Shown piece after piece: positions 4,753-20,133 of a stretch of DNA of 30,182 nucleotides. This DNA is from Oculatellaceae cyanobacterium bins.114 (GTDB taxonomy: Bacteria > Cyanobacteriota > Cyanobacteriia > Elainellales > Elainellaceae). The stretch spans positions 1 to 30,182 of the forward strand of contig JANRJA010000250.1 of NCBI GenBank assembly GCA_033764315.1, written 5' to 3'. The notes under the pieces are model-generated. The model was not told the DNA's origin. It did no database searches and was given only the letters and a program-made list of their open reading frames with translations. Each line of letters opens with the position of its first letter. Position 1 is the first letter of the stretch. Made by a program: the position numbers and the translations under genes.

Positions 4753-5994
4753 ATGACTTCTACCCATCCTCCTCGCTCAGCGAGCGATTCCTCTGCTGAA
4801 TCTCGGCCACCTTCGACTCATCACAAAGCCAAGGCACTCAAAAGTGGGAGCCGTCGCCCTGCTAAAGAGTTGTGTAGTGAATGCGGGTTGTGTGACACCT
4901 ACTATATTCACTATGTCAAAGAAGCGTGTGCCTTTATTAATCAACAAGTAGCGGATTTAGAAGTCGAAGCTCACGGTCGCAGCCGCGATTTGGAGAATCC
5001 AGACGATATCTACTTTGGGGTCAATCAGACGATGATGGCAGCCCGTCGTGTTGAGCCGATTGAAGGCGCACAGTGGACAGGGATTGTCAGCACGATCGCC
5101 ATTGAGATGTTGAACCGGGGGCTAGTGGAAGGCGTGGTGTGTGTGCAAAACACCAAAGAAGATCGCTTTCAACCCATGCCTGTGATTGCCCGCACCCCTG
5201 AAGACATTTTGGCAGCACGAGTCAATAAGCCCACGTTGTCACCCAACCTCTCGGTGTTGGAACAGGTAGAGCAATCTGGACTGAAGCGGTTGCTGGTGAT
5301 TGGTGTAGGGTGCCAGATTCAAGCTTTGCGAGCGGTTGAAAAACAGCTAGGACTAGAAAAACTGTATGTGTTAGGTACTCCCTGTGTAGATAATGTCACC
5401 CGTGAGGGACTGCAAAAGTTTTTAGAAACTACGAGTCGATCGCCCAAAACAGTGGTTCACTACGAGTTTATGCAAGATTATCGGGTGCACTTTAAGCATG
5501 AAGACAGTTCCGTAGAAATGGTGCCCTTCTTTGGGCTAAAAACCAACCAACTCAAAGATGTGTTTGCTCCTTCGTGTATGAGCTGTTTTGACTACGTCAA
5601 CTCTCTGGCCGATCTGGTGGTGGGCTATATGGGTGCCCCCTATGGTTGGCAGTGGCTTGTGGTGCGCAACGATCGCGGTCAGATGATGCTCGATCTGGCG
5701 TGGAACCAACTTGAAACCCAACCTGTGATGTCGCAGGGCGATCGCCACGCAGCGGTGCAACAGAGCATTCCTGCCTATGACAAGGGCGTAACCCTGCCGA
5801 TGTGGGCAGCCAAACTGATGGGGGTGGTGATTGACAAAATTGGTCCTAAAGGGCTGGAATATGCTCGGTTTTCTATCGACTCTCACTTTACCCGCAATTA
5901 TTTGTATCTCAAGCGCAACCACCCTGAAAAGCTAGAGGCGCATGTGCCCGATTACGCCAAACGGATTGTGGAGCAATACGAGTTACCAGAGTAA
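4753..5994 (+). CDS. bciB: FrhB-family Fe-S flavoprotein, probable ferredoxin-dependent 3,8-divinyl (proto)chlorophyllide 8-vinyl reductase (BciB/CvrA)
   Basis: RPAKELCSECGLCDT, GAQWTGIVS, KPTLSPNL, GVGCQIQALR, GTPCVDN and SCMSCFDY..LADLVVGYMG motifs of the cyanobacterial BciB/HCAR-like family. Confidence 0.85.
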   Translation: MTSTHPPRSASDSSAESRPPSTHHKAKALKSGSRRPAKELCSECGLCDTYYIHYVKEACAFINQQVADLEVEAHGRSRDLENPDDIYFGVNQTMMAARRVEPIEGAQWTGIVSTIAIEMLNRGLVEGVVCVQNTKEDRFQPMPVIARTPEDILAARVNKPTLSPNLSVLEQVEQSGLKRLLVIGVGCQIQALRAVEKQLGLEKLYVLGTPCVDNVTREGLQKFLETTSRSPKTVVHYEFMQDYRVHFKHEDSSVEMVPFFGLKTNQLKDVFAPSCMSCFDYVNSLADLVVGYMGAPYGWQWLVVRNDRGQMMLDLAWNQLETQPVMSQGDRHAAVQQSIPAYDKGVTLPMWAAKLMGVVIDKIGPKGLEYARFSIDSHFTRNYLYLKRNHPEKLEAHVPDYAKRIVEQYELPE

Positions 5995-6014
5995 TTTTCT
6001 TTCATTGCGGAAGA

Positions 6015-6066
6015 TTCATCTGATTGGGTGAAGAGTGGGTATAGCCCCCTCACACCTGACATCCTC
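6015..6066 (+). promoter_or_regulatory. Conserved leader of TIR-WD40 copy 1 (degenerate palindrome plus TATAGCCCCCTCA plus ACATCCTC)
   Basis: TTCATCTGATTGGGTGAA (6015-6032); homologous to 11146-11198 and 14682-14734. Confidence 0.7.
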
Positions 6067-9000
6067 ATGAGCGATGTTTTCATCTCGTATTCCCGCAAAG
6101 ACAAAGACTTTGTCAAAGTTTTGCATCAAGCCCTAACCGCCAGCACTTATAACGCCTGGGTAGATTGGGAAGATATTCCCCTAACCGCAGATTGGTGGCA
6201 GGAGATCAAAAGTGGCATTGAGCAAGCCGATACCTTTGTCTTTGTCATCAGTTCAGATTCAGTGCGCTCTAAAGTCTGTGGTCAAGAGCTAGACCATGCG
6301 ATCGCCCACAATAAACGCCTCATCCCGATTGTGCGGCGCGATGGATTTGACTCCGAATTGATTCGTCCAGCCTTGGGCAAACACAACTGGTTGTTTTTTC
6401 GAGACGAAGATGAGTTTGATCAAGCCTTTCAAGCACTTGTCAAAGCCCTCGACACCGATTTAGATCATGTCAAGCGTCACACTCGCTTGTTAGTTAAAGC
6501 GATCGAGTGGGAGCATCAACACCACAATCCTGATTTGTTGATGCGAGGCAGTGAGTTAGAACAGACGATTCAGTGGCTAACTCAGAGCAGTAACAAAGAA
6601 CCGCGATCGACCGAGTTGCAACTGGAATACGTCAACGAAAGCCGCAAAGCTGAACTCGCTCAACGGGATGCCGAAATTAAGCGACAAAAGAAAGCTCGAA
6701 AGGCGATCGCCACTGCTCTGGTTGGGGCTGTTTTCTGTTTGATTATCGCGATCGCATTAGGGTTATTTTCGTTTAGCCAATATCAAACCGCTGAAGCTCG
6801 CCGTAAAGAAGTTGAACAAAGCCAAATTGAAACGCTTAGCACCTCTGCCGAAGCATTTCTCAATGCCAATCACGGGCTTGACGGGCTGCTCTATGGACTT
6901 CGCGCCGCCCGCAAATTGCGCAATACGGAAGGTGTAGCGTTGGAAACGCAGATGAAGGTCACGGCTGCGCTGCAACAAGCACTGCATGGTGTACAGGAGC
7001 GCAATCGGATGGAGGGACATCGTGATGAGATTTGGAATCTTGCGGTTAGTTCAGATGGTAAAACGATCGCATCTGCTAGCCGAGACAATACGGTCAAGCT
7101 GTGGAATTTAGAAGGTCAACTGCTCGCAACATTGACGAAACATACATTACCCGTGAGCGGGGTCAGTTTTAGTCCAGATAGCCAAATCGTCGCCACGACT
7201 GGTGAGGACAAAACCATTAACCTGTGGGATTTGAAGGGTAACTTGTTGCGATCGCTAACGGGACACTCAGCAAATGTTATTAACGTTAACTTTAGTCCAG
7301 ATGGGAAACAACTAGTTTCGACTAGTTTGGATGGCACAATTAAATTTTGGAGTGTAAATGGTACGCTACTAAAGACACTTAATGCCCATCGTTACGGAAC
7401 ATGGAGTGCTAAATTTAGCCCCGATGGCAAGCTACTAGTCACTTGTGGTAACGATAATACTGTTAAGCTGTGGAACTCGTTTGGTGAGCTGTTAAAGACG
7501 TTTGAAGGACACCAAAATAATGTTAGACGAGCAATCTTTAGCCCAGATGGTCAGGTGATTGCTTCGGCAGACCGAGATGGTGTGATTAAACTGTGGAACT
7601 TGAGCGGCAAAAAACTTGCAACTATGCAAGAACACACCGATGCGATTTGGGGATTAAGCTTTAACCCGGATGGACAGACCCTTGTGTCTGCGAGTGAAGA
7701 CGGCACCGTTAGATTTTGGAATTTAGATGGCAAAGAAGTGGAAACTCTGCGAGGGTTTTATCCTGCGATAGATGCCCTTGGTTTTAGCCCAGATGGTCAA
7801 ACCTTAGTAATGGGCGATCGCGGGGGTGTAGTCAAACTGTGGAATCTGAATCAATTGACTCTAAAGCATGATGCTGAAGTGACAGGTCTTAATTTCAGTC
7901 CAGATGGTCAAATGGTGGTGACGGGCAGCAATGACCTCACAGCAAAGCTATGGAGTATTGATGGCACAAAGCTTAGAACCTTTAGAGGCTATAGTTCTGG
8001 GATCAGTTGGGTTAGCTTCAGCGCAGATGGAAATCACATCAACACCGGAACATATGGTGGAACGATTAAACTTTGGGATTTGAACGGCAAAGAATTGAGA
8101 GCTACATCGGAGCAGCCTCGTTTCAAAATTGTGAGTTTTAGCCCTGATGGTCAAACCATTGCTTTTGCTGAGGAGGGTGGCATGATCAGGCTTGAAACTT
8201 CAAACGGTAAACAGTTGGCCTTCGTTAAAGGACACGATGCCTTTATTAATATCATTCAATTCAGCCCCGATGGCAAAACGATTGCATCACCTAGCGATGA
8301 CGGTACAGTTAAGCTTTGGGATTTACAGGGCAAAAATTTGGCAACGCTGAGGCAAGGTAGTGCTGTAGCGCAGGTTAGCTTTAGCCCGGATGGCAAAACG
8401 ATTGCCTCGGCAGGTGCTGACAGAACTGTTAAACTTTGGACTCTAGATGGTAAAGAAATCAGAACTCTGAGAGGGCACAGCGGCAGTGTCAGAAGTGTTA
8501 CTTTTAGCCCTGATGGAACGTTGATTGCCTCTGGTGCAACCGATGGCATGGTTAAACTGTGGACTATAGATGGCAACGAGTTAGCAACCCTAAAGGGACA
8601 TCAAACTTCCGTCTTGGTATTACGCTTTAGCCCGGATGGAAAAACAATTGCCTCTGGCAGTCAGGAGGGATTGGCAATTTTATGGAGTGTAGATTTTGAC
8701 GAGTTGCTGACTCACAGTTGTCATGTGCTGCGGGGGTATCTGAGCAATAATCCAAATCTTGCTGAGAGCGATCGCCACCTGTGCGATGGACTTGAGCGCG
8801 ACTGGGTAGCAGAAGGGGAAGAACTGGCTAGGGCAGGAGATGTGCCCAGGGCGATCGAGCGATTTCGAGAAGCCCTCAAACGCAATTCCAACCTAAAGTT
8901 TGATCCTCAGATCAAAGCCCAGCAAATTGCAGCCGTCATTCCATTAGATCAGGCTGAGCGGCTGATAGAGAGAGAAGATTTAGAAGGTGCAACCCAAGCC

Positions 9001-9489
9001 TTTCAGAAGGCGTTGGAGTATTATCCGGGGTTAAACTTCGACCCTAAAACCAAAGCCTATCAAGAAGTTGCCATTGTCAAAGTGCGACAAGGAGATGAGC
9101 TGGCTTACGAAGATCAACTTAGTTGGGCTGAGGTTCAACAGTTGATGGAGTTATACACCAAAGCACAGGAGCTTGACCCGAAGGTTGATATTCCTGCTCA
9201 AGGTTTGAATAATATTTGCTGGCAGGGTTCTCTCCAGGGACATGCAACTGAGGTGCTTGATAGTTGTGAAAAAGCAGTTGCTCGCAGTCCTGGTGATAGT
9301 AATATTCAAGATAGTCGTGGTCTGGCTAGAGCACTCACAGGTAATACACAAGGGGCGATCGCAGATTTTCAATTTTTTGTTGACAAAACCAACGATGAGG
9401 AATTGAAAGCGCAACGACAGGGTTGGATTGAAGCATTACGTCGAGGTGAGAATCCATTTACTCCAGAGGAAATTGAGACATTAATGTAG
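6067..9489 (+). CDS. TIR - TM - 14x WD40 - TPR-like protein, copy 1
   Basis: TIR_2 start DVFISYSRKD with CGQEL helix; basic KRQKKARK then a hydrophobic helix; 14 GH...FSPDG...LW repeats; TPR-like tail. ATG 6067 chosen because it aligns with both paralogue starts. Confidence 0.92.
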   Translation: MSDVFISYSRKDKDFVKVLHQALTASTYNAWVDWEDIPLTADWWQEIKSGIEQADTFVFVISSDSVRSKVCGQELDHAIAHNKRLIPIVRRDGFDSELIRPALGKHNWLFFRDEDEFDQAFQALVKALDTDLDHVKRHTRLLVKAIEWEHQHHNPDLLMRGSELEQTIQWLTQSSNKEPRSTELQLEYVNESRKAELAQRDAEIKRQKKARKAIATALVGAVFCLIIAIALGLFSFSQYQTAEARRKEVEQSQIETLSTSAEAFLNANHGLDGLLYGLRAARKLRNTEGVALETQMKVTAALQQALHGVQERNRMEGHRDEIWNLAVSSDGKTIASASRDNTVKLWNLEGQLLATLTKHTLPVSGVSFSPDSQIVATTGEDKTINLWDLKGNLLRSLTGHSANVINVNFSPDGKQLVSTSLDGTIKFWSVNGTLLKTLNAHRYGTWSAKFSPDGKLLVTCGNDNTVKLWNSFGELLKTFEGHQNNVRRAIFSPDGQVIASADRDGVIKLWNLSGKKLATMQEHTDAIWGLSFNPDGQTLVSASEDGTVRFWNLDGKEVETLRGFYPAIDALGFSPDGQTLVMGDRGGVVKLWNLNQLTLKHDAEVTGLNFSPDGQMVVTGSNDLTAKLWSIDGTKLRTFRGYSSGISWVSFSADGNHINTGTYGGTIKLWDLNGKELRATSEQPRFKIVSFSPDGQTIAFAEEGGMIRLETSNGKQLAFVKGHDAFINIIQFSPDGKTIASPSDDGTVKLWDLQGKNLATLRQGSAVAQVSFSPDGKTIASAGADRTVKLWTLDGKEIRTLRGHSGSVRSVTFSPDGTLIASGATDGMVKLWTIDGNELATLKGHQTSVLVLRFSPDGKTIASGSQEGLAILWSVDFDELLTHSCHVLRGYLSNNPNLAESDRHLCDGLERDWVAEGEELARAGDVPRAIERFREALKRNSNLKFDPQIKAQQIAAVIPLDQAERLIEREDLEGATQAFQKALEYYPGLNFDPKTKAYQEVAIVKVRQGDELAYEDQLSWAEVQQLMELYTKAQELDPKVDIPAQGLNNICWQGSLQGHATEVLDSCEKAVARSPGDSNIQDSRGLARALTGNTQGAIADFQFFVDKTNDEELKAQRQGWIEALRRGENPFTPEEIETLM

Positions 9490-9530
9490 CGGTTAATTGG
9501 CAAAGCGAAACGTTCTGGACATACCCAAAA

Positions 9531-10232
9531 TTACTCCTCTGGTGGAGTCCCCAATGCCTTGAGTTGAGCTTTCAGCCGTTCAATTTCTTCCTCTGCGGCT
9601 TCTGCTCGCAGGCGTTGTTGGTCTGCGATGAGGCGTTGTTGCTCTGCGATCGCGCGTTGTTGCTCTGCCCGTTCCGCTATTTGCTCATAGGTTTCAAAGG
9701 GTTGCCCATCAGGACGGTACAACACCAGTTGCCCCTCCAAACTCAACGTGAAGCGAACTCCTAACCGAGGACTGATCCAGCTGTCGATCTCCTCGATGGC
9801 TTCGAGCTGACCTTCCTGTCGTTGAAAGCCTCCTAAACTGAGCCGATCGGGGTCATAGATGTAATATTCTTCGACTCCATAGCGATCGTAAAACTGAAAC
9901 TTGCGGGTCATCTCTGGAATCGTGTTGCCCGGAGAGATAACTTCAAAAACGACTTGAGGGGCAACGTTCTCTTCTTTCCACTGCTGGTAACTGCCCCTAT
10001 CGCCCTTGGGTCGCCCAAAAATCACCATAACATCGGGGGCTTGCCGCAATTTATTGTTGCCCTCAATCGGATACCAGAGGAGATCTCCTGCAACAAAGAC
10101 ATTTGGGTCATTAAGAAACAACCAATCACAACCCTTCTTGATGTAGACAATCACCTCAAACTGTTTGGTATTGTCTGCCATCGGTTGACCGTCAGAGTCG
10201 GGATAGTGAACAGGGGTGGAAATCGTAACCAT
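9531..10232 (-). CDS. Uma2-family (PD-(D/E)XK fold) putative endonuclease
   Basis: YPDSDGQPMADN, APDVMV, PQVVFEVISPGN, FYDRYGVEEYYIYDP and a coiled-coil tail. Confidence 0.92.
   Translation of the reverse strand: MVTISTPVHYPDSDGQPMADNTKQFEVIVYIKKGCDWLFLNDPNVFVAGDLLWYPIEGNNKLRQAPDVMVIFGRPKGDRGSYQQWKEENVAPQVVFEVISPGNTIPEMTRKFQFYDRYGVEEYYIYDPDRLSLGGFQRQEGQLEAIEEIDSWISPRLGVRFTLSLEGQLVLYRPDGQPFETYEQIAERAEQQRAIAEQQRLIADQQRLRAEAAEEEIERLKAQLKALGTPPEE
9610..9672. repeat. Three 21-nt tandem repeats in the Uma2 coiled-coil tail
   Basis: AGGCGTTGTTGGTCTGCGATG / AGGCGTTGTTGCTCTGCGATC / GCGCGTTGTTGCTCTGCCCGT, encoding heptads such as AEQQRAI-AEQQRLI-ADQQRLR. Confidence 0.85.
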
Positions 10233-10296
10233 GCGATCGCCTCAAGAACGGTTCAGTTCACATACTACTGATTTTAACAACCCTGAGTGGGTTCGA

Positions 10297-11040
10297 TTAC
10301 TCTGGCAAGTTATCAGGGTCAACACCGAGCGATCGCACATACTCTGCTAACCGTTCTGCTCGCTGGCGTTCTGCCTCCGTTCGCTGGCGTTCGATCACAA
10401 GCTGACGTTGCGTATCATAAACCTGCTGATCAGGCATGGGGTACGCCTGCCCCTGAGCGTTGTGCCACAACAGCACTTCTTGTTCAATGCCGCCAATTAC
10501 CTGCCGACCACGACCTAGCCCCAGACCGACTTCTGGCATCCAGTACGGTTCACCAATTTGCAGATGGTAGGTTTCACCCGCTAGTTTATAAACCTCAAAC
10601 GGTTGATGGCGGTCACGCTGCCAAAACTCTGGGTTGTAGATCACATAGTAGAGAACACCGAGCCGAGCATAGATCTTCAATTTCTCGTCATACTCCTCGT
10701 TGGGACGGTGAGACACCATCTCTAACACCAGAGTCGGCGCGACATAATTTTCCTCCCAAGTAGCATAGCTCCGACGTGACTTGCCCCCCTTCTTGCGCTC
10801 AACCCCCAAACTCAAAAACCCGTCGGGCACGACAGGAACCTTGGGACTAACTCCAGTCGTGTGATAGACCGCCATATCGACCCCAAAGTACCAATCCATG
10901 CGGTCTGACCAAAGGAGAGCTAGAGAAAATAGCAATAGGTTAGGCAGTAAATTTTGGTCTTCGTTATCCACAGGAGTATCGTCAGAGCACGGTAGCTCTT
11001 CGGTGCTGGGTAAAGTGGTATCAAGGGGATGTGAAACCAT
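10297..11040 (-). CDS. Uma2-family putative endonuclease (different subtype from its neighbour)
   Basis: LPCSDDTPVDNEDQ, VPDGFLSLGV, PTLVLEMVS, YARLGVLYYVIYNP and a RAERLAEYVRSLGVDPD tail. Confidence 0.92.
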   Translation of the reverse strand: MVSHPLDTTLPSTEELPCSDDTPVDNEDQNLLPNLLLFSLALLWSDRMDWYFGVDMAVYHTTGVSPKVPVVPDGFLSLGVERKKGGKSRRSYATWEENYVAPTLVLEMVSHRPNEEYDEKLKIYARLGVLYYVIYNPEFWQRDRHQPFEVYKLAGETYHLQIGEPYWMPEVGLGLGRGRQVIGGIEQEVLLWHNAQGQAYPMPDQQVYDTQRQLVIERQRTEAERQRAERLAEYVRSLGVDPDNLPE

Positions 11041-11145
11041 AGGAATGAATTGAATTCCCGATAGTACTTATTCTAATGCAGCGTCTGCTTGTTCCTCGTT
11101 CATTAAGGAGTTGTAACCCCGTTAATGGCTCTCTGTTGCAGAAAA

Positions 11146-11198
11146 TTCGCCCGATCGGGTGAGGATTAAGTATAGCCCCCTCAAAACTCAACATCCTC
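11146..11198 (+). promoter_or_regulatory. Conserved leader of TIR-WD40 copy 2
   Basis: TTCGCCCGATCGGGTGAG (11146-11163), TATAGCCCCCTCA, ACATCCTC-ATG. Confidence 0.7.
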
Positions 11199-14100
11199 AT
11201 GAGTGATGTTTTTATTTCCTACTCTCGCAAAGACAAAGCCTTTGTTGAAGCGCTCCATGCTGCCCTTCAAGCGTGCGATCGCACCACCTGGGTCGATTGG
11301 AGCAACATTCCGTTAACTGCCGATTGGTGGCAGGAGATTAAAACAGGGATCGAAGCGGCGGATACATTTGTTTTTATACTCAGTGCTGACTCCGTTGCGT
11401 CCACGGTGTGTCGTCAGGAAGTTGAACATGCCGTTCTCCATCACAAGCGATTAATTCCCGTTGTGTGGCGCGATGATTTTGACAATGAGTTAGTACATCC
11501 GGCTCTGCGAAAGCACAACTGGCTGTTTATGCGAGAGGCAAATGATTTTAACACCACATTTGAGCAGTTATTGAAAGCGATCGACACAGATTTAGAACAT
11601 GTCAAACAACACACGCAACTGTTATTAAGAGCGATCGAGTGGAAGCACAAACACTACAGCCCTGATCTATTGCTACGGGGACGAGAGTTAGAGTTAGTGA
11701 TTCAATGGCTCACGCAAGATGCCGATAAAGAGCCGCGATCAACTCAACTGCAACGCGAGTATGTCAACGACAGCCGCAAAGCCGAAGTTGCCTACCGCGA
11801 AGCCGAGATTAAACGTCAGAAAAAAGTTCGTAAAACGATCACGGCTATGTTGGCGATCGCCATTTTCTGTTTCTTCATTGCTACTGGATTGGGATTATTA
11901 GCTGTGGGTCAATATCAAAGGGCTGAAGCCCAGCGTCAAGAGGCGACCCTGAGCGAAATTAAGGCGTTAAATACCTCCTCAACAGCACTGTTGGCATCCG
12001 ATCATCCCTTTGATGCTCTGCGAGAAGCAATGCGAGCCGCCAGTCGAGTTAAGTCCGTTCATTGGATTCCAGATCACACTCAAGCACAAACCCGGTTATC
12101 GTTGCAGCAAGCGATCGACGCTGTGCAAGAACTCAATCATTTGGAGGGTCACACTAACATTGTTTCTCAAATCCGCTATAGCCCCGATGGGCAAACTCTG
12201 GCCTCTGCCAGTTGGGACAACACGATAAAACTGTGGAACACGAACGGGCAACTGTTAAAAACATTGAGAGGTCATACTGATGTGGTCACAAGCATCGACT
12301 TTAGCCCAGACAATCAACAGTTAGTGTCGGCGGGTCGAGATAACATCATCACCCTGTGGGATCTGAATGGGCAGCAATTAAGAACCTTTAGTGGGCACTC
12401 ACCCTTTGCTTTTGATGTGAAGTTTAGCCCTGACGGTAAAGCGATCGCCTCGGCTGGGGCTGATGGCACTATTAAACTATGGGATTTGGCAGGACACGAG
12501 TTAAACACCTTCAGAGGTCATTCTGGCTTTGTCAATAGTGTCAGTTTTAGCCCCGATGGTAAAACAATCGCCTCAGGTGGATCGGACAAAATCATCCGAT
12601 TGTGGAGCGTGGATGGACAAGTATTACAGACCTTCACAGGTCACAGCGATAGGATAGCTCAAGTGACCTTTAGTGCTGATGGTCGCCATTTAGCGTCTAC
12701 TAGTATGGATGCGACCATTAGACTGTGGAGTGTGGATGGACGGGAACTGAAAACATTTAGCCAGCATGGGTCAGCCATTGCTATCAGCTTTAGCCCCGAT
12801 GGACAACAATTGGCGATCGCTCACGCAGAAGGTGTGATCACCCTTTATGACTTAGCAGGTCAACCCATCGCCACCTTTGAGAGCACAGGAGAGCAACTTC
12901 TTAGTGTTTGTTTTCATCCTGATGGCAAAACTCTTGCGGTTGGCAATAGCAATGGCACAATCCAGCTTTGGAATCTAAATCGCTTAGGACCCATAACCCT
13001 TGAAGGGCATTTAAAGACTATTGCGGCTGTGACTTTTAGCCCCGATGGTCAAACGCTTGTCTCTGCCAGCGAAGATAACACCATTCGCCGTTGGAGCCTG
13101 GATGGCAAATCTCTCAATGTTATTAACGGGCATCAAAAACAGCTCACCACGGTTGAGGTTAGCCCCAATGGTCAAATTCTGGCTTCAGCTAGCCTGGATG
13201 GCACGGTCAAACTGTGGAACCAAGATGGACAAGAACAAGCCTCGATGCAAGCCGATCCGCTGGGAGTTTTCAGTCTGAGTTTTAGTCCCGATAGTCAAAC
13301 CCTTGCCTCTGCTGGGCTTGATGGCATTTTGAAATTGTGGAATCTAGACGGTCAGATCTTGAAACAATTTCCAGGGCAAAATTATGGAATCACAACCATC
13401 AGCTTTAGCCCCAATGGTCAGGCAATCGCCACTGGTGGATATGATAACCTGGTTCGCTTGTGGAGCCTTCAGGGCCAAGAATTAAAAACACTGAAAGGAC
13501 ATACCAGTTACATCTACAGCGTTAGTTTTAGTCCTGATGGCAAAACGATCGCCTCTGCTAGCAACGATCGCACGATTAAACTGTGGAATTTAAACGGAGA
13601 AGAACTACAAACGCTGCGAGGACATACCAGCCTTGTGAGTAGCGTCCGCTTTCACCCTAATGGAACCGTTTTACTTTCCGCTAGTGATGACAAAACAATT
13701 AAGTTGTGGAGTCTTGATGGTCAAGAACTCAAAACCTTGCAAGGGCACACCGATGGAATCGCCAGTGCGGTCTTTAGCCCCGATGGTCAGACTATCGCCT
13801 CTGGTAGTGCAGATAAAACCATCAAACTGTGGGATGCCAAAGTTCTCAATTTTGGCGAATTAACCACTCAAGGATGTCGCTGGCTAAATGACTATTTAAT
13901 TAGCCATCCAGAAGATTTAGAAGACATTGCCATTTGTCAAACTTCAGCAAACCGCCCTCAAGCCGCTTTTACCTTTGTCACGCGAGGCGAAGATTTGGCA
14001 AGCCAGGGCAAGGTTCAGGAGGCGATCGCCCAGTTTCAATTGGCAAACCAGTGGGATCCGCAATTGCACCTTGATCCACAACAAACCGCTGACCAGTTTG

Positions 14101-14657
14101 CAACTCAAGCCCATGTAAGAAAACTGGTGGCTGACGGAGAGGCACTTGCCAGAGCCAATGATATTCAAGCGGCGATTGCCAAATTTCAAGAGGCACAACG
14201 GTTAGACTCCAGCCTCACCTTTGACGCCACCCAGAAAGCAACTCAACTCGCCACCACAATACAGATGGCTCAGGGAGTTTTGCTGGCACGCCAGGGCAAC
14301 ATCAAAGAGGCGATCGCCATCTACAAAGAGGTTCAACGCCTTGACGCTCATGCCATTTCTGTTCAAGCGTGGGATAGTCTTTGTTGGCGTGGCAGTCTCC
14401 ACGGATTCCCCCAAGAAGTCGGTTTTGCCTGCGAAAAAGCAGTTGCCCTCTCTCGCCAAGACCCATCGACTTTAGAGAGCCGGAGCGTAAATCGAGCGTT
14501 ACGACACAACTTTAAGGGAGCCATTCAAGATCTGGAAACCGCTTTACAACACACGACCGATGAGTCATTGAAAGCCAGATGGAATCGTTGGTTAAAGATG
14601 CTTCGTGCCAATCAAACCCCCATCACTCCCGAAGAAGTTGAGAATCTGCTGAATTAA
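11199..14657 (+). CDS. TIR - TM - 14x WD40 - TPR-like protein, copy 2
   Basis: DVFISYSRKD and CRQEV helix; KRQKKVRK then TM ITAMLAIAIFCFFIATGLGLLAV; 14 WD40 repeats; TPR-like tail. Confidence 0.92.
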   Translation: MSDVFISYSRKDKAFVEALHAALQACDRTTWVDWSNIPLTADWWQEIKTGIEAADTFVFILSADSVASTVCRQEVEHAVLHHKRLIPVVWRDDFDNELVHPALRKHNWLFMREANDFNTTFEQLLKAIDTDLEHVKQHTQLLLRAIEWKHKHYSPDLLLRGRELELVIQWLTQDADKEPRSTQLQREYVNDSRKAEVAYREAEIKRQKKVRKTITAMLAIAIFCFFIATGLGLLAVGQYQRAEAQRQEATLSEIKALNTSSTALLASDHPFDALREAMRAASRVKSVHWIPDHTQAQTRLSLQQAIDAVQELNHLEGHTNIVSQIRYSPDGQTLASASWDNTIKLWNTNGQLLKTLRGHTDVVTSIDFSPDNQQLVSAGRDNIITLWDLNGQQLRTFSGHSPFAFDVKFSPDGKAIASAGADGTIKLWDLAGHELNTFRGHSGFVNSVSFSPDGKTIASGGSDKIIRLWSVDGQVLQTFTGHSDRIAQVTFSADGRHLASTSMDATIRLWSVDGRELKTFSQHGSAIAISFSPDGQQLAIAHAEGVITLYDLAGQPIATFESTGEQLLSVCFHPDGKTLAVGNSNGTIQLWNLNRLGPITLEGHLKTIAAVTFSPDGQTLVSASEDNTIRRWSLDGKSLNVINGHQKQLTTVEVSPNGQILASASLDGTVKLWNQDGQEQASMQADPLGVFSLSFSPDSQTLASAGLDGILKLWNLDGQILKQFPGQNYGITTISFSPNGQAIATGGYDNLVRLWSLQGQELKTLKGHTSYIYSVSFSPDGKTIASASNDRTIKLWNLNGEELQTLRGHTSLVSSVRFHPNGTVLLSASDDKTIKLWSLDGQELKTLQGHTDGIASAVFSPDGQTIASGSADKTIKLWDAKVLNFGELTTQGCRWLNDYLISHPEDLEDIAICQTSANRPQAAFTFVTRGEDLASQGKVQEAIAQFQLANQWDPQLHLDPQQTADQFATQAHVRKLVADGEALARANDIQAAIAKFQEAQRLDSSLTFDATQKATQLATTIQMAQGVLLARQGNIKEAIAIYKEVQRLDAHAISVQAWDSLCWRGSLHGFPQEVGFACEKAVALSRQDPSTLESRSVNRALRHNFKGAIQDLETALQHTTDESLKARWNRWLKMLRANQTPITPEEVENLLN

Positions 14658-14681
14658 GTCTCTTCAATCTCCTACGGAAAA

Positions 14682-14734
14682 TTCACCCGATCGGGTGAAG
14701 AGTTGGATATAGCCCCCTCACAACCAACATCCTC
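14682..14734 (+). promoter_or_regulatory. Conserved leader of TIR-WD40 copy 3 (perfect 18-bp palindrome)
   Basis: TTCACCCGATCGGGTGAA (14682-14699) is its own reverse complement; then TATAGCCCCCTCA and ACATCCTC-ATG. Confidence 0.75.
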
Positions 14735-17700
14735 ATGAGTGATGTTTTTATTTCCTACTCCCGCAAAGATAAAGCCTTTGTCAAAGTTTTGCACCAAGCC
14801 CTGACCGCCAGCACTTACAACGCCTGGGTGGATTGGGAAGATATTCCCCTAACCGCAGATTGGTGGCAGGAGATCAAAAGTGGCATTGAGCAAGCCGATA
14901 CTTTTATATTTGTCATCAGTTCAGATTCAGTTCGTTCTAAAGTTTGTGGTCAAGAGCTAGACCATGCGATCGCCCACAATAAACGCCTCATCCCAATTGT
15001 GCGGCGCGATGGATTTGACTCCGAATTGATTCGTCCAACCTTAAGCAAGCACAACTGGTTGTTTTTTCGAGAAGAGGATGATTTTGAGCAAGCGTTTCAG
15101 TCACTCGTTAAAGCCCTCGACACCGATTTAGATCATGTCAAGCGTCACACTCGTTTGTTAGTTAAAGCGATCGAGTGGGAGCATCAACACCGCAATTCTG
15201 ATTTGTTAATGCGGGGCAGCGAGTTAGAACACACGATTCAGTGGCTAACTCAGAGCAGTAACAAAGAACCGCGATCGACCGAGTTACAACTGGAATACGT
15301 CAACGAAAGCCGCAAAGCTGAACTTGCTCAACGGGATGCGGAAATTAAGCGACAAAAGAAAGCTCGAAAGGCGATCGCTACGACTTTGGTCGGTGCCTTG
15401 GTCTGTTTGATGATTGCGATCGGATTAGGACTCTTTTCATTTAGCCAATATCAAACGGCTGAAGCCCAGCGGCAACAAGCAACCATCAGTGAGATTCGAG
15501 CAATCACAACTTCCTCCAATGCCTCGTATGACTCCAATCGAGGACTGGATGCGTTGACAGAAGCGTTAAAGGCAAGAAGCCGCTTAGACTCAGCACCTTG
15601 GGCGGATGAGGCAACTCGCCAGCAAGTGAGACTGTCGTCGCAGCAAGCCGTTTACGATATCAGGGAAAAGAATCGACTGGAAGGACACCTCGACGCAGTT
15701 CAAGGTCTCAGCTTTAGCCCTGATGGTAAAGCGATCGCCTCAGCCAGCTTTGATAAAACCATTAAACTGTGGAGTTTGGATGGATATGGAATCAAAACTC
15801 TGAGAGGACATAGGTCTCGGGTCTATAGCGTGAAATTTAGCCCTGACGGCAAGATGTTAGCGTCTGCTAGCGGAGATAGAACCATTAAACTTTGGAACTT
15901 AGAAGGACAGGAACTTCAAACATTTCAGAATATTAATTCAATCTTTGCGATTGACTTTAGCCCCGATGGAAAAACCCTTATTTCTAGTAGTTTTGATTCT
16001 ACTGGTGAGGGTGTAATCGGGTTGTGGAGCTTAGAGGGTCAGCTTAGGAGAACGATTAAAACCTCTGAAGCTTCAAGCGACACTGTGAGCTTTAGTCCTG
16101 ATGGCACAACGATTGCGATCGCCAGTGATAAAACAGTTAGACTCTTTAGCTTGAATGGTCAAGAACTCAAGACGCGAGAATTTAGCGGTTCCATTACCGA
16201 TCTAAGTTTCAGCCCAGACGGTGAAACCATCGTTTGCTCTACTGATGATGGCAACATCAGTGTTTGGAATATTGAGACTCAAGAATTCAAAACATTCAGA
16301 GCAATTCAAAGTGGAAGTTTTCATAGTGTGAGTTTTAGCCCCTATGGCAAAACCGTCGCGTCGTCTGACTCGAATGGAATGATTGCAGTTTGGACACCTG
16401 CTGGACAGATGCTCACAACGTTTCAGGGAGGATATGGCGGTCGGAGCAGTGTTGTTCGGTTTAGTCCTGATGGTCAAACAATCGCTTACGGTCATGCTGA
16501 TGGCAGTGTCACACTTTGGGGGTTACAAAATCAGGAACTCAGGACATTTCAGGGTCATGATGGCTTTGTTAGAGGGGTCAGTGTTAGTCCTGATGGCAAA
16601 ACGATCGCCTCTGCCAGTGCTGATCAAACCATCAAGCTCTGGACTGTAGATGGACAGGTTATCAAAACATTGCAGGGGCATACTGATGAAGTTACCACAG
16701 TCCGTTTCAACCCGGATGGCAAAATAATCGCCTCTGGTAGTGCAGACAAAACCGTTAAACTGTGGACTGTGCAGGGTCAACTCCTTGCAACATTAACGGG
16801 TCATACCGATTGGGTAAATGATGTTCAATTTAGTCCTGATGGCAAAACCCTTGCAAGTGCGAGTTGGGATGGAACCATTAAACTGTGGAATTTAAGCGGG
16901 CAAGCAATCAGGACATTCAAAAATAATGGACTGGGAGTATTAGGAATCAGTTTTAGTCCCGATGGTCAAACCATTGCGGCTGCAAATGCCAATTGGGATA
17001 AAACGGTCACACTTTGGAGTGTTAAGGGTGAATTGCTCAACACTCTTAAGGGACATAATGCTGCAATCACGGGTGTGAACTTTAGCCCAGATGGCAAGAT
17101 GATTGCCACAGCCAGTGACGATAGAGTCATTAAACTCTGGAGTTATCCAGAGGGTCGAGAATTAAGCTCGTTTAGAACACGTATTCAAGTCAGTATGGTA
17201 AGGTTTAGCCCTAATGGTCAATTTCTTGTAACCGCCAGTAAGGACAACACCATTAAATTTTGGACGTTAGACGGTCAAGAACTAAAAAGTTTAAGAGGGC
17301 ACACAGGGTTAGTCCGTGACATCAGCTTCAGTCTTGATGGCAAAACCCTTGCTTCTGCTAGCGAAGATAGAACGATTAAGCTCTGGAATGCTACGATCCT
17401 TGACGAGGAACAGCTCATGACACGAGGATGTCAGTGGACGCAGGAGTATTTGATCCTTCATCCTGAGATTTTGCAAACGACTGAAGCGTGTCAATCTGAT
17501 GTGCTCTTTACCCAGGCTGTACCCACCTTGATGGCTCAGGCAGAAGACCTGGCACGAGATGGGGATACTCAAAGTGCGATCGCCAAACTTCAAACGGCTT
17601 TAGATTGGAATCCTCAATTAGACATTAATCCCGAAGAAACCGTTCAACAATTTGCGGTCAGAGGTCAGGCCGAACAACTGATTGTCGAGGCTGACCGATT

Positions 17701-18082
17701 AGCATCACAAGGCAAGATTCGAGAGGCGATCGCATTCTACACAGAGGCTCAGGCACTTGATCCAGATTTGCAAATTTCTGCTGACTCATGGGATATCCTC
17801 TGTTGGTATGGTAGTCTGCGCAATTTTGCTCAAGAGGTCGTAGTGGCTTGCGATCGCGCCGTTGAGTTGTCGCCTAACGATTGGTCTTCTCCTGAAAGTC
17901 GTGCTGCGAATCGAGCTTTACGAGGTGACTTTAAGGGAGCGATCGCAGATCTGGAGAAGGCGATCGCGAATGGCATACCCGATGAGGAATCTAGAACGAG
18001 GTGGCAACGGTGGATGACAACATTACAAGCTGGCAAAAACCCATTAACTACCGATGAAATTGAGGCAATGCTGAGTGAATAA
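14735..18082 (+). CDS. TIR - TM - 14x WD40 - TPR-like protein, copy 3
   Basis: N-terminal ~217 aa nearly identical to copy 1; TM helix; 14 WD40 repeats; TPR-like tail one unit shorter than copies 1 and 2. Confidence 0.92.
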   Translation: MSDVFISYSRKDKAFVKVLHQALTASTYNAWVDWEDIPLTADWWQEIKSGIEQADTFIFVISSDSVRSKVCGQELDHAIAHNKRLIPIVRRDGFDSELIRPTLSKHNWLFFREEDDFEQAFQSLVKALDTDLDHVKRHTRLLVKAIEWEHQHRNSDLLMRGSELEHTIQWLTQSSNKEPRSTELQLEYVNESRKAELAQRDAEIKRQKKARKAIATTLVGALVCLMIAIGLGLFSFSQYQTAEAQRQQATISEIRAITTSSNASYDSNRGLDALTEALKARSRLDSAPWADEATRQQVRLSSQQAVYDIREKNRLEGHLDAVQGLSFSPDGKAIASASFDKTIKLWSLDGYGIKTLRGHRSRVYSVKFSPDGKMLASASGDRTIKLWNLEGQELQTFQNINSIFAIDFSPDGKTLISSSFDSTGEGVIGLWSLEGQLRRTIKTSEASSDTVSFSPDGTTIAIASDKTVRLFSLNGQELKTREFSGSITDLSFSPDGETIVCSTDDGNISVWNIETQEFKTFRAIQSGSFHSVSFSPYGKTVASSDSNGMIAVWTPAGQMLTTFQGGYGGRSSVVRFSPDGQTIAYGHADGSVTLWGLQNQELRTFQGHDGFVRGVSVSPDGKTIASASADQTIKLWTVDGQVIKTLQGHTDEVTTVRFNPDGKIIASGSADKTVKLWTVQGQLLATLTGHTDWVNDVQFSPDGKTLASASWDGTIKLWNLSGQAIRTFKNNGLGVLGISFSPDGQTIAAANANWDKTVTLWSVKGELLNTLKGHNAAITGVNFSPDGKMIATASDDRVIKLWSYPEGRELSSFRTRIQVSMVRFSPNGQFLVTASKDNTIKFWTLDGQELKSLRGHTGLVRDISFSLDGKTLASASEDRTIKLWNATILDEEQLMTRGCQWTQEYLILHPEILQTTEACQSDVLFTQAVPTLMAQAEDLARDGDTQSAIAKLQTALDWNPQLDINPEETVQQFAVRGQAEQLIVEADRLASQGKIREAIAFYTEAQALDPDLQISADSWDILCWYGSLRNFAQEVVVACDRAVELSPNDWSSPESRAANRALRGDFKGAIADLEKAIANGIPDEESRTRWQRWMTTLQAGKNPLTTDEIEAMLSE

Positions 18083-18172
18083 CTGGCATGCAACAGGGGT
18101 TTTATTTCCCTGACTGGGGTGGGCAAAATCGACCCTTGGGTATACTCAAGACAGTCACTTGCCGTGCAATTT

Positions 18173-20097: not shown

Positions 20098-20133
20098 GCT
20101 AACTTAAGATCAAGTGTGATGCGCTTGATTAGC

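Follow-up and report, generated by a model that had tools for sequence, protein, structure and literature searches.

To our knowledge, and in the literature searched, every characterised bacterial TIR system senses its trigger inside the cell. SARM1, AbTir, SPARTA TIR-APAZ, Cat1 and TIR-SAVED are soluble, and their triggers are intracellular (NMN/NAD, guide-target duplexes, cyclic oligoadenylates). Bacterial TIRs examined to date are generally enzymes, and an extracellular beta-propeller is found in PknD-type Ser/Thr kinases. A further group comprises the WD40 proteins with caspase/CHAT-nSTAND1 or AAA-like modules (PF20703; Kaur, Burroughs, Iyer, Aravind). According to the passages of these publications on which we rely, the caspase/CHAT-nSTAND1 modules are conflict or cell-death effectors (PMC7159879, PMC8195603), while the main-text passages searched mention no transmembrane (TM) helix between effector and WD40 region. 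In addition, the consulted part of a preprint reports anti-phage activity for BcTir/BcTpr of Bacillus cereus, a two-gene operon that pairs a TIR with a TPR protein (bioRxiv 10.1101/2023.05.26.542521).

Here we analyse three paralogous genes, A, B and C, within a stretch of 30,182 nucleotides (contig JANRJA010000250.1 of Oculatellaceae cyanobacterium bins.114; hereafter the window). A functional description of their TIR-TM-WD40-TPR layout was not found in the literature searched, in which the family is annotated only generically. This agrees with the preliminary description of the locus, which knew of none either.

Architecture and context of the three genes

Based on the ORF list and translations, A, B and C are co-oriented plus-strand paralogues (Table 1). 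In each product, a TIR_2 domain is followed by a conserved linker of helical structure and a basic patch, then by one hydrophobic helix, a WD40 region of 14 repeats and the TPR tail. This architecture had been proposed earlier, and ORFs, Pfam and repeat HMM agree on it. The three genes had also been called a tandem array. Their common orientation bears this out, but A and B are not adjacent: two Uma2 genes on the minus strand lie between them. Furthermore, the locus had been taken to start at position 6015, which in fact opens a conserved upstream palindrome. The ORF of gene A opens with a GTG at 6028, while the gene starts at the ATG that is the common start of B, C and the Crinalium orthologues.

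Table 1. Positions of genes, protein parts and upstream elements in the window.
Feature	Position	Strand	Remarks
Gene A	6067..9489	+	1140 aa, counted from ATG 6067
A, TIR	6067-6456		
A, linker	6457-6690		
A, uncharged TM span	6703-6792		
A, juxtamembrane helices	6793-6987		
A, 14 WD40 repeats	6988-8685		
A, Cys-capped TPR tail	8686-9486		
Gene B	11199..14657	+	1152 aa
B, TIR	11199-11588		
B, linker	11589-11822		
B, TM span	11835-11918		
B, 14 WD40 repeats	12120-13832		41-aa period
B, Cys-capped TPR tail	13833-14654		
Gene C	14735..18082	+	1115 aa
C, TIR	14735-15124		
C, linker	15125-15358		
C, TM span	15371-15460		
C, 14 WD40 repeats	15656-17386		
C, Cys-capped TPR tail	17387-18079		
Uma2 gene between A and B	9531-10232	-	Pfam neighbour scan
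Uma2 gene between A and B	10297-11040	-	Pfam neighbour scan
Conserved palindrome upstream of A	6015..6032	+	ends about 35 nt before ATG; two mismatches
Conserved palindrome upstream of B	11146..11163	+	ends 36 nt before ATG
Conserved palindrome upstream of C	14682..14699	+	ends 36 nt before ATG; exact match
Tract of A resembling C	6007..6770	+	DNA 83-98% identical to C ~14675-15440; P0013 also compared

The N-termini match Pfam TIR_2 (PF13676) with E values of 1.1e-28 (A), 2.7e-27 (B) and 8.4e-29 (C), and the bit scores (100.6, 96.1 and 101.0) exceed the cut-off of 28. In an AF2 model of B residues 1-312 (pLDDT 90.2), the TIR fold superposes on solved TIR domains as a flavodoxin-like alpha/beta structure. 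It is closest in structure to the TIR of SARM1 (Z 18.8, rmsd 1.9, 127 residues). The best Foldseek matches are SPARTA, TIR-1, SARM1 and AbTir, and the TIR part reaches TM-scores of 0.82-0.86 to AbTir and Hydra TRR-2; all Foldseek and VIA matches of the N-terminal model concern this part only (residues 1-133). The alignment with Cat1 runs without gaps over residues 2-78 and places S7, D33, S68 and E74 on the Cat1 residues of the same names and numbers, while K121 and Y122 of the second Cat1 TIR fall outside this stretch and the residue preceding the Cys is Trp in Cat1 but Val in the A/B/C-type TIR. As stated in those parts of the Cat1 study that we draw on, the four residues line the NADase site, and the substitutions D33A, S68A and E74A are defective in vivo (PMC12162218). 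All four are invariant in 19/19 sequences from Cyanobacteria and Chloroflexota. The Glu of the alpha-C helix, which had been reported for all three proteins, was confirmed as well (CGQEL in A and C, CRQEV in B) and is conserved in 295 of 301 aligned TIR domains. Judged by residue identity, the TIR has an intact NADase-type active site and may be enzymatically active.

The repeat HMM counted 14 WD40 repeats in each protein, exactly the number given before, and the period is strict in B. The WD40 region matches Pfam families of 7-bladed propellers and, from repeat number and Pfam matches, probably folds into two of them. Variation, both between orthologues and between repeats, peaks at repeat positions 14-20 and 34. 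The tails match Pfam TPR_2 (E 5e-11 to 4e-13), and Foldseek searches with the tail model returned only generic TPR solenoids, including the pilus-biogenesis protein PilF.

The upstream palindrome is of the type TTCACCC-N4-GGGTGAA and lies in a block of ~60 nt that A, B, C and both Crinalium orthologues have in common, which suggests that the three paralogues are co-regulated. A genome-wide search allowing up to two mismatches gave 121 loose matches and no sign of a regulon beyond A/B/C, and a promoter/terminator scan of positions 5900-18400 gave 6 promoter-like sites versus 13.7 expected, none of them at the conserved block. The tract in which A resembles C runs from the 5' leader across TIR and linker into the codons of the TM helix, where it stops; downstream, DNA identity is ~45-55%. 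This collapse indicates, at the level of sequence, gene conversion or an exchange of the cytoplasmic module between A and C. Compared with the Crinalium orthologues of B and C, the linker is the most conserved part (91-92% amino acid identity), while WD40 region and tail reach 65-75%. The dN/dS values of 0.03-0.2 in every region point to purifying selection throughout and show no positive selection at this coarse scale, although dS is saturated (mostly >1, undefined in two regions), which makes them a weak test for diversifying selection.

The genes that flank A, B and C are housekeeping genes (18 neighbours, Pfam scan). PADLOC, applied to 12 neighbours, delivered single-domain matches only and no known defence system, and the defence or self/non-self role considered in the preliminary description finds no support in the neighbourhood. 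Neither did the 18 Pfam-scanned or the 12 PADLOC-scanned neighbours include a ThsA-type effector (SIR2 or TM with SLOG/Macro). Consequently, a Thoeris system (ThsA plus ThsB) was rejected, the ThsB_TIR scores being 21.3, 19.1 and 21.2 bits at a cut-off of 21.2. An assignment to STAND/NLR-like receptors was rejected as well: the proteins do carry C-terminal superstructure-forming repeats (14 WD40 plus TPR), but Pfam searches with residues 1-310/330 found TIR models only and no P-loop NTPase. A polymorphic partner gene linked to A/B/C was not found in the window.

The cassette of TM helix, WD40 repeats and TPR tail is not restricted to TIR proteins, as it also follows caspase/nSTAND1 and AAA-like modules, and proteins of the nSTAND1, caspase and AAA-like kinds bear the tail as well. 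Residues 147-311 of B align with a CHAT-nSTAND1-TM-WD40 paralogue (E 2e-11), and at E<=1e-10 the linker-TM region has matches in 374 representative clusters. Searched in the ESM Atlas, residues 131-312 gave unnamed clusters and weak nSTAND1 and TIR leads only. Members of the family are spread widely among filamentous Cyanobacteria and are found in Chloroflexota too. The distribution is patchy (11/201 sampled genomes) with varying numbers of paralogues. The source genome contains >20 TIR ORFs.

Predicted membrane topology and the cysteine pattern

Strongly hydrophobic 19-mers occur exactly once per protein (Kyte-Doolittle means 2.78 in A, 2.61 in B and 2.53 in C); the next-best segment does not exceed 1.34. 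The basic patch noted earlier ahead of this helix reads KRQKKARK in A and C, while B has Val in place of Ala (KRQKKVRK). Lys and Arg number 7 on the N-side versus 2-3 on the C-side of an uncharged span of 28-30 residues; A/B/C thus combine the TM-length span and the positive-inside charge of an N-in/C-out single-pass protein. The same bias is seen in 133 TM-anchored WD40 proteins (median uncharged span 24 aa), which on average have 5.10 Lys plus Arg within 15 residues on the N-side versus 3.05 on the C-side, with N>C in 111, equality in 18 and N<C in 4, statistics that ignore kinship among the proteins. The ~80-residue linker is helical and highly conserved. In the AF2 model of B, residues 132-311 are helical only, and a single continuous helix (183-266) crosses the TM segment. 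In addition, the same genome encodes a TIR-linker module of the same kind followed by a TM helix and CHASE2 (2 ORFs) or dCache (1 ORF), with more TM helices after these domains.

A second line of evidence comes from cysteine. Among 108 proteins with >=10 WD repeats, 100 have an upstream hydrophobic segment and 8 do not, and pooled WD-region Cys amount to 40 of 57,475 residues in the former versus 73 of 4,775 in the latter, that is 0.07% behind a TM helix versus 1.5% in TM-less relatives at a genome background of 1.09%, again ignoring kinship. Individually, 79 of the 100 have no WD-region Cys, 16 have one, 3 have two, and one each has 8 and 10, while the eight proteins lacking the segment have 15, 1, 10, 10, 10, 9, 10 and 8. 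Exceptions to the rule are P0060 (TM helix, 10 Cys) and P0068 (no TM helix, 1 Cys). In WD40 proteins that combine an nSTAND1, caspase or AAA-like N-terminus with the tail, WD-region Cys number 0-1 and tail Cys exactly 4 in 21/21. Cysteine exclusion and an even-Cys bias are described marks of exported proteins, according to the passages available to us (PMC2823432). Of the 133 TM-anchored proteins, 59 have two and 63 have four Cys after the WD array; the total beyond the TM helix is even in 106 and odd in 27. The tails of A, B and C contain two conserved Cys pairs, and one extra WD-region Cys in each brings the number beyond the TM helix to 5. The first pair forms a cap after the last repeat and is also kept in TM-less relatives, so that it does not by itself indicate a position outside the cell. 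Of the machinery that could form the proposed disulfides, searches of the 90.7%-complete assembly turned up only three DsbA-like thioredoxin-fold ORFs, and neither VKOR nor DsbB.

Taken together, the CHASE2/dCache swaps, the positive-inside bias, the Cys exclusion and the continuous predicted helix speak for the topology put forward before, with the TIR inside and WD40 plus TPR outside, and from these indicators, computed from sequence and AF2, we infer membrane insertion of A/B/C. However, the same domain order is also found in relatives that lack the TM helix, which form at least three independent lineages if counted by architecture only. Thus the TIR-WD40 module can also work wholly inside the cell. 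Some of these relatives differ by a clean deletion of ~29 residues, so that the family does not depend on a sensor outside the cell.

Proposed mechanism and alternative readings

We favour, with moderate confidence, the reading that A, B and C are single-pass transmembrane sensors with a cytoplasmic N-terminus, an external WD40-TPR part and a TIR with NADase or signalling output. TIR and linker would lie inside, connected through the membrane by the long predicted helix, and two helices, the WD40 array and the TPR solenoid would lie outside, be it in the periplasm or perhaps the thylakoid lumen. The WD40/TPR surfaces might bind a multivalent ligand or register a change of the envelope, upon which receptors would cluster or re-orient via TM and juxtamembrane helices. 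The cytoplasmic TIRs could then enter head-to-tail contacts that complete a composite active site, as in solved TIR NADases, and NAD+ cleavage would lead either to NAD+ depletion with cell arrest or death or to an ADPR-derived signal. The three paralogues would have one common output and diverged sensors. The analysis shows the domain composition, the conservation, the topology indicators and the identity of the active-site residues; besides membrane insertion, it is enzyme activity, activation by clustering and the biological role that we infer here.

Housekeeping flanks with no defence island, purifying selection in all regions, a tail like generic TPR scaffolds including PilF and the confinement of the family to filamentous lineages would also fit an envelope or cell-cell housekeeping factor. 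Here the WD40-TPR part in the periplasm would serve as a scaffold for the filament's peptidoglycan, septal-junction, pilus or outer-membrane assembly complexes, with a regulatory or vestigial TIR and no role in immunity. However, the same cassette is attached to caspase/CHAT-nSTAND1 modules, treated as conflict or cell-death effectors in the passages cited above, the TIR active-site residues are strictly kept, and the patchy occurrence with variable paralogue number fits an accessory rather than a core function. We thus consider such a factor unlikely. We give a lower rank to the scenario that the same receptor perceives a self-derived cue, such as damage of a neighbour cell or kin/non-kin surface molecules, instead of serving anti-phage defence. 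The TIR would then execute the programmed death of single filament cells, e.g. as sacrificial cells or in allorecognition. Such a role is in line with the restriction to filamentous, multicellular Cyanobacteria and Chloroflexota, with diverged sensor paralogues whose one output module is exchanged between them, and with variation concentrated at few repeat positions, but the window lacks a linked polymorphic partner gene and selection is purifying at coarse scale. Less probable still is a TIR that, at the same topology, acts as non-enzymatic assembly or scaffold domain in the style of animal TLR/MyD88 and recruits other TIR proteins. Hydra TRR-2, IL-1RAcP and MyD88 do match about as well as SARM1 (Z 17-18.5), and the TIR ORFs of the genome offer many potential partners; against this stand the four identical, invariant Cat1-pocket residues, the near-universal Glu and the generally enzymatic nature of bacterial TIRs examined so far. 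Finally, a buried or oligomerisation helix in a cytosolic, NLR-like TIR-WD40 sensor with no NTPase is very improbable. TM-less relatives do make the architecture workable in one compartment, but the hydrophobicity of the 28-30-residue uncharged span (2.5-2.8 over 19 residues), its positive-inside bias and the homologous TIR-linker modules ahead of TM helices flanking CHASE2 and dCache speak against it, and a 20-fold Cys difference between forms with and without the helix would be difficult to account for if both were cytosolic.

Returning to the transmembrane sensor, one might speculate that A/B/C and the caspase/nSTAND1 cassette proteins form a class of transmembrane innate-immune or death receptors, in which a surface cue acts through a cytoplasmic TIR NADase, or a caspase in the sister proteins, so that the filament cell concerned is sacrificed or arrested. 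We offer this wider interpretation tentatively, as possible rather than probable. Its periplasmic beta-propeller/TPR ectodomain would detect attacker or damage before the cytoplasm is breached and signal along the continuous helix, which would make it a functional counterpart of Toll-like receptors with independent origin in multicellular bacteria. If the TIR is indeed coupled to an extracytoplasmic sensor, bacteria would also own surface-surveillance receptors with immune- or death-type output. Toll-like receptor logic and NADase-type TIR chemistry would be joined in one polypeptide, which would also offer a simple, single-chain system for studying how binding at the ectodomain leads to TIR assembly. 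The TIR-TM-WD40 family is large, and its receptor-like layout is common in filamentous bacteria. Furthermore, the Cys contrast between TM-anchored and TM-less proteins provides a cheap, sequence-only predictor of outward-facing cyanobacterial WD40 proteins.

Comparison with known systems

Thoeris ThsB is a weak sequence match to the TIR of A/B/C (PADLOC E 3e-9, Pfam ThsB_TIR 19-21 bits), while A/B/C are large, membrane-anchored and multidomain, with no ThsA-type effector nearby. The BcTir/BcTpr operon, as far as the consulted part of its description goes, apparently lacks both TM helix and WD40 array. SARM1, AbTir, SPARTA TIR-APAZ, Cat1 and TIR-SAVED have the same TIR fold, with pocket residues in Cat1 identical to those of A/B/C, and by analogy activation by oligomerisation is expected here as well. 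In contrast to these assembly-activated NADases, A/B/C are predicted to carry their sensor outside the cytoplasm and to couple it via a membrane helix. This logic of cytoplasmic output, TM helix and extracytoplasmic sensor is that of CHASE2/dCache TM sensors, which occur here with the same TIR-linker. However, A/B/C differ from such sensors and from PknD-type kinases in a TIR output in place of kinase, cyclase or MCP, and in an ectodomain of 14 WD40 repeats plus TPR.

Toll-like and IL-1 receptors resemble A/B/C as single-pass proteins with repeat-built ectodomain and cytoplasmic TIR (fold match Z 17-18.5). Yet the polarity is reversed, with an N-terminal TIR, a C-terminal sensor and no signal peptide, WD40-TPR replaces LRR or Ig domains, the TIR keeps NADase-type residues, and no adaptor proteins are known. 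The earlier proposal of a TLR-like topology consequently stands as an analogy, but not for polarity and sensor, and membership in the metazoan Toll-like receptor type, with its type I orientation, N-terminal LRR ectodomain and C-terminal TIR, was rejected because A/B/C have the TIR at the N-terminus, the sensor at the C-terminus and no LRR; the likeness is analogous, not orthologous. The caspase/CHAT-nSTAND1 and AAA-like WD40 proteins, which occur in the same genomes and lineages as the TIR family, have a homologous cassette in common with A/B/C. It comprises the linker's second half with the basic patch, the TM helix and the juxtamembrane helices, followed by ~14 WD40 repeats and the TPR tail with its 4 Cys, while the cytoplasmic module here consists of a TIR and an 80-aa helical linker with no NTPase.

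Domain architecture and locus of the three paralogues

Genes A, B and C are best read as encoding transmembrane sensors, in which the ectodomain would control the assembly of a cytoplasmic, NADase-type TIR domain of putative activity. Pfam scans were run separately on the N-terminal 310-330 residues and on the tails. All three N-termini match TIR_2 (E 1e-27 to 1e-29, 96-101 bits at a cut-off of 28) and the tails match TPR_2 (E 5e-11 to 4e-13), while WD40 and beta-propeller family matches dominate the parts in between. As claimed in the preliminary description, each protein carries 14 WD repeats according to a repeat HMM built from B, whose own repeats keep a strict 41-residue period. Differences between B and its Crinalium orthologue, as well as between one repeat and another, are highest at repeat positions 14-20 and 34, which we take to be the top-face positions of WD40 blades. 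The tail was modeled as an all-helical solenoid (pLDDT 96.5), and its structural likenesses are generic TPR proteins only.

Each protein contains one strongly hydrophobic 19-mer (Kyte-Doolittle mean 2.5-2.8) and no second; it sits within an uncharged span of 28-30 residues and is preceded by KRQKK(A/V)RK. Because this transmembrane (TM) span is 88% identical between orthologues and, in 33 of the 56 family members with a single TIR, comprises a G-x-G motif, its sequence suggests more than an anchor. The linker (residues 131-208) gave no Pfam match and is the best-conserved part between orthologues, with 91-92% amino acid identity compared to 81-84% for the TIR domain and 65-75% for WD40 array and tail.

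The translations of A, B and C are clear paralogues, and their earlier description as an array was correct, although the start of A had been misplaced and two adjacent Uma2-family genes interrupt the array. One of these two genes gave weak matches to the PADLOC candidate PDC-S03. By Pfam family, the remaining neighbours resemble housekeeping genes (radical SAM, GTP cyclohydrolase I, SDR, ACCase alpha, FrhB-like, SbcC, methyltransferase-TPR, MarR, ParA-like, DAHP synthase and a deaminase). PADLOC returned single-domain matches only for A, B and C and nothing system-like among 12 neighbours.

Starting 37 nt past the end of C, a 459-aa ORF encodes a protein whose N-terminus is Pro-rich, with a single hydrophobic helix around residue 100 and an extended helical part rich in Gln; it matched no Pfam, NCBIfam or PADLOC family, and in Crinalium the C orthologue is not linked to a counterpart. 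Together with an ORF for a YcxB-like protein it lies upstream of a gene for an SbcC-family ATPase (TIGR00618, 510 bits, above cut-off), which has no recognizable SbcD gene adjoining.

Table. Coordinates of genes, tracts and upstream blocks (L001-L004 and L011 are loci, the latter a Crinalium contig; C81 to C241 are contigs of the source genome)
Feature	Location	Strand	Basis
Gene A	window 6028-9489; start common to paralogues, ATG 6067	+	long ORF
Gene B	window 11199-14657	+	long ORF
Gene C	window 14735-18082	+	long ORF
Uma2-family (PF05685) genes between A and B	window 9531-10232, 10297-11040	-	Pfam
459-aa ORF	window 18119-19498		
SbcC-family ATPase gene	window 20116-23286		TIGR00618
A/C high-identity tract (leader, TIR, linker)	window about 6007-6770 vs 14675-15440		DNA identity
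Conserved upstream blocks	window 6015-6066, 11146-11198, 14682-14734; L011 about 5550-5603, 9300-9352		
Triple TIR-linker ORF, L001	C241:719-4852		
Triple TIR-linker ORF, L002	C141:34754-37837		
Triple TIR-linker ORF, L003	C213:9886-13047		
Triple TIR-linker ORF, L004	C81:27192-30419		

Predicted orientation in the membrane

Four independent lines, namely domain swaps, the positive-inside rule, structure prediction and cysteine content, point to a predicted topology with the TIR domain inside and WD40-TPR outside, as the preliminary description had proposed. First, the TIR-plus-linker module occurs in 10 ORFs of the source genome (6.6 Mb, 251 contigs, 90.7% complete). Besides A, B and C, two further ORFs are of the TIR-TM-WD40 type and one reads TIR-TM-unknown-TM. 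Three tandem units are followed in two ORFs by a TM helix, CHASE2 and three further TM helices, in one by a TM helix, a dCache-like domain and another TM helix, and in one by a TM helix and 14 WD40 repeats. CHASE2 and Cache domains flanked by TM helices are established extracytoplasmic sensors, as stated in the accessible part of PMC8195603. Consequently, the homologous TIR-linker should be cytoplasmic and the part after the single TM helix should face outward. In the triple ORFs (L001-L004) the tandem units always stand ahead of the TM helix, with the WD40, dCache or CHASE2 sensor behind it, and database relatives possess up to 7 units.

Second, 133 WD40 proteins whose array is preceded by a hydrophobic segment were compared for K+R in the 15 residues on either side of it; the mean is 5.10 for the N-side vs 3.05 for the C-side. 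The N-side is richer in 111, equal in 18 and poorer in 4, and the net charge is +3.4 vs +0.7. Third, AlphaFold2 modeling of B 1-312 (19-sequence alignment, pLDDT 90.2) gave a TIR domain at 1-129, helices at 132-150 and 161-176, and an unbroken 84-residue helix at 183-266, followed by two more helices. Basic patch, TM span and the first stretch of the juxtamembrane part all lie on this long predicted helix.

Fourth, exported proteins have been described as tending to even numbers of cysteines and as excluding cysteine (PMC2823432, in the part available). In the source genome 21 ORFs possess at least 5 WD repeats. In 12 of them a TM helix immediately precedes the WD region (248-618 residues, mostly about 570), which contains 0-1 Cys; the two long arrays that lack a convincing TM helix contain 8 and 15. 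Source-genome ORFs and retrieved homologues were then pooled, ignoring kinship, to 108 proteins with at least 10 WD repeats. A hydrophobic segment lies upstream in 100 of them, and of these 79 have no Cys in the WD region, 16 have one and 3 have two; the two outliers are a protein with 8 Cys, whose doubtful segment lies 415 residues upstream, and P0060 with 10. The 8 proteins without such a segment have 15, 1, 10, 10, 10, 9, 10 and 8. Pooled, this amounts to 0.07% Cys with and 1.5% without the segment, compared to a genome background of 1.09%. The TM-less set comprises proteins with one TIR, three TIRs or none, so that the contrast is seen in no fewer than three architectures. Within it, P0076, P0095, P0101, P0103, P0115 and P0120 carry 8-10 Cys per array vs 0-2 in nearly all TM-anchored proteins. 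The TM-less relative L011:1391-4066 lacks basic patch and TM helix as one clean gap of about 29 residues in the alignment of the TIR-to-juxtamembrane part.

Past the WD array, 59 of 133 TM-anchored proteins have 2 Cys (a short cap only) and 63 have 4 (cap together with TPR tail). Counted from the TM helix onward, 106 of the 133 show an even number of Cys, and Cys density is 1.03% in the cytoplasmic vs 0.41% in the outside part. Across an alignment of 22 tails, three of the four Cys never vary and the fourth hardly does; in B the two pairs are Cys 893/913 and 1062/1078. The cap pair is kept in TM-less forms too, and one additional Cys lies in the WD region of each of A, B and C. Three DsbA-like ORFs were found in the source genome, while VKOR and DsbB were not found in this 90.7% complete assembly.

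A shared cassette, its distribution and module exchange

The predicted outer part is not confined to TIR proteins. B 147-311 resembles a CHAT-nSTAND1-TM-WD40 paralogue of the source genome (28% identity, E 2e-11), and a search with the tail only (B 885-1152) returned 26 proteins at E<=1e-5, mostly annotated as nSTAND1 NTPase, caspase family or AAA-like. All 21 tail-bearing proteins with WD repeats show 0-1 array Cys and exactly 4 tail Cys, and 20 of them have a hydrophobic segment at most 200 residues before the array, P0135 having none there. This recurrence on other N-termini thus defines, by sequence comparison, a cassette of TM helix, juxtamembrane helices, WD40 array, Cys cap and TPR tail that is combined with alternative cytoplasmic modules. 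In CHAT-nSTAND1, AAA_35 and TPR-nSTAND1 proteins of the source genome (C222:2771-7495, C16:17103-20582 and C16:20642-25813) the TM helix separates the NTPase module from a WD40 array of 13-14 repeats. A membrane between a STAND NTPase and its repeat sensor, as predicted here, is unexpected.

A search with B 1-312 gave 571 matches among 8000 scored candidates; the named ones are all from filamentous cyanobacteria and bear generic protein names. With linker, TM span and juxtamembrane part as query, 2873 representative clusters were found at E<=1e-3, 374 at 1e-10 and 13 at 1e-30. Of the 150 top-ranking representatives, 87 read (TIR)n-TM-WD40 (n = 1, 2, 3, 5 or 7) and 4 are TM-less TIR-WD40, while most others have TM helices and then other domains. 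In an evenly sampled phylum, matches at E<=1e-40 occur in 11 of 201 genomes and 10 of 96 genera; the source genome has 9. The same TIR-linker-TM design exists in Chloroflexota (Anaerolineae, Ardenticatenaceae; loci L013-L022). There, L016:9965-13177 encodes 1070 aa in which TIR-linker-TM is succeeded by a long coiled coil rich in AEEQR and then by a WD40 array, with a Cys pair at the terminus.

On a Crinalium contig the orthologues of B and C, each 73% identical, likewise stand in tandem and in this order, between differing flanks and with a TM-less TIR-WD40 gene nearby; B-C is therefore a conserved pair. A and C share 83-98% DNA identity over a stretch that opens some 60 nt ahead of the ATG and extends to about nt 640, beyond which identity drops through the TM codons to about 45-55%. 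In addition, the post-TM part of A is nearly identical to the metagenomic protein P0013, whose N-terminus differs. Paralogues have thus swapped the cytoplasmic module, the breakpoint lying at the TM helix, and by its identity profile the A/C tract is a gene-conversion or recombination tract ending within the TM codons. All regions evolve under purifying selection (dN/dS 0.03-0.2, with dS saturated).

A block of roughly 60 nt precedes A, B, C and both Crinalium orthologues. It comprises an invariant TATAGCCCC stretch and a 7+7 palindrome (TTCACCC-N4-GGGTGAA type) whose end lies about 36 nt ahead of the ATG. This shared block suggests a common regulator for A, B and C; it could be an operator overlapping the promoter or a leader hairpin.

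The TIR domain and comparison with known effectors

The active site of solved TIR NADases is completed by TIR-TIR contacts. The sole PDB sequence match of B 1-214 is Cat1, a CRISPR-associated TIR NADase (E 1.2e-5, ungapped over residues 2-78). According to the available part of PMC12162218, its site is lined by S7, H8, N9, N10, D33, S68 and E74 of one TIR and by K121 and Y122 from a second, and the variants N10A, D33A, S68A, E74A, K121A and Y122A are defective. S7, D33, S68 and E74 of the present TIR coincide with the same Cat1 positions and show no variation among 19 cyanobacterial and Chloroflexota sequences. The conserved Glu noted at first sight holds more widely: of the 301 TIR domains retrieved and aligned, 295 have E there.

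The best structural match of the TIR model is the SARM1 TIR (Z 18.8, rmsd 1.9, 127 residues), and Foldseek ranked SPARTA TIR-APAZ, TIR-1, SARM1 and AbTir on top. However, scaffold TIRs score almost equally to enzymatic ones, so that an enzyme and a scaffold cannot be told apart by fold alone. On the active-site residues, we favour an enzyme. As TIR-TIR contacts are needed (Cat1 K121/Y122 come from the second TIR), ligand-driven clustering would be a natural switch: a ligand may cluster the single-pass receptors, upon which the cytoplasmic TIRs would assemble. In tandem TIR-linker forms (n up to 7), part of this assembly might be pre-built in one chain. The output may be either loss of NAD+ or a signal molecule, and candidate roles are defence, programmed cell death, kin recognition and envelope maintenance.

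The preliminary description knew of no functional account of such proteins; likewise, none was found in the openly available full-text literature. The accessible parts of PMC7159879, PMC8195603, PMC10907252, PMC5587647 and PMC7075850 describe no TM helix between effector and WD40. Nor do the open full texts, as far as available, describe a TIR-TM-WD40 protein; the supplementary architecture tables of the two eLife papers may list one. We rate the TIR-TM-WD40 design not as categorically new, but as lying within the known TIR/conflict-type effectors with repeat sensors.
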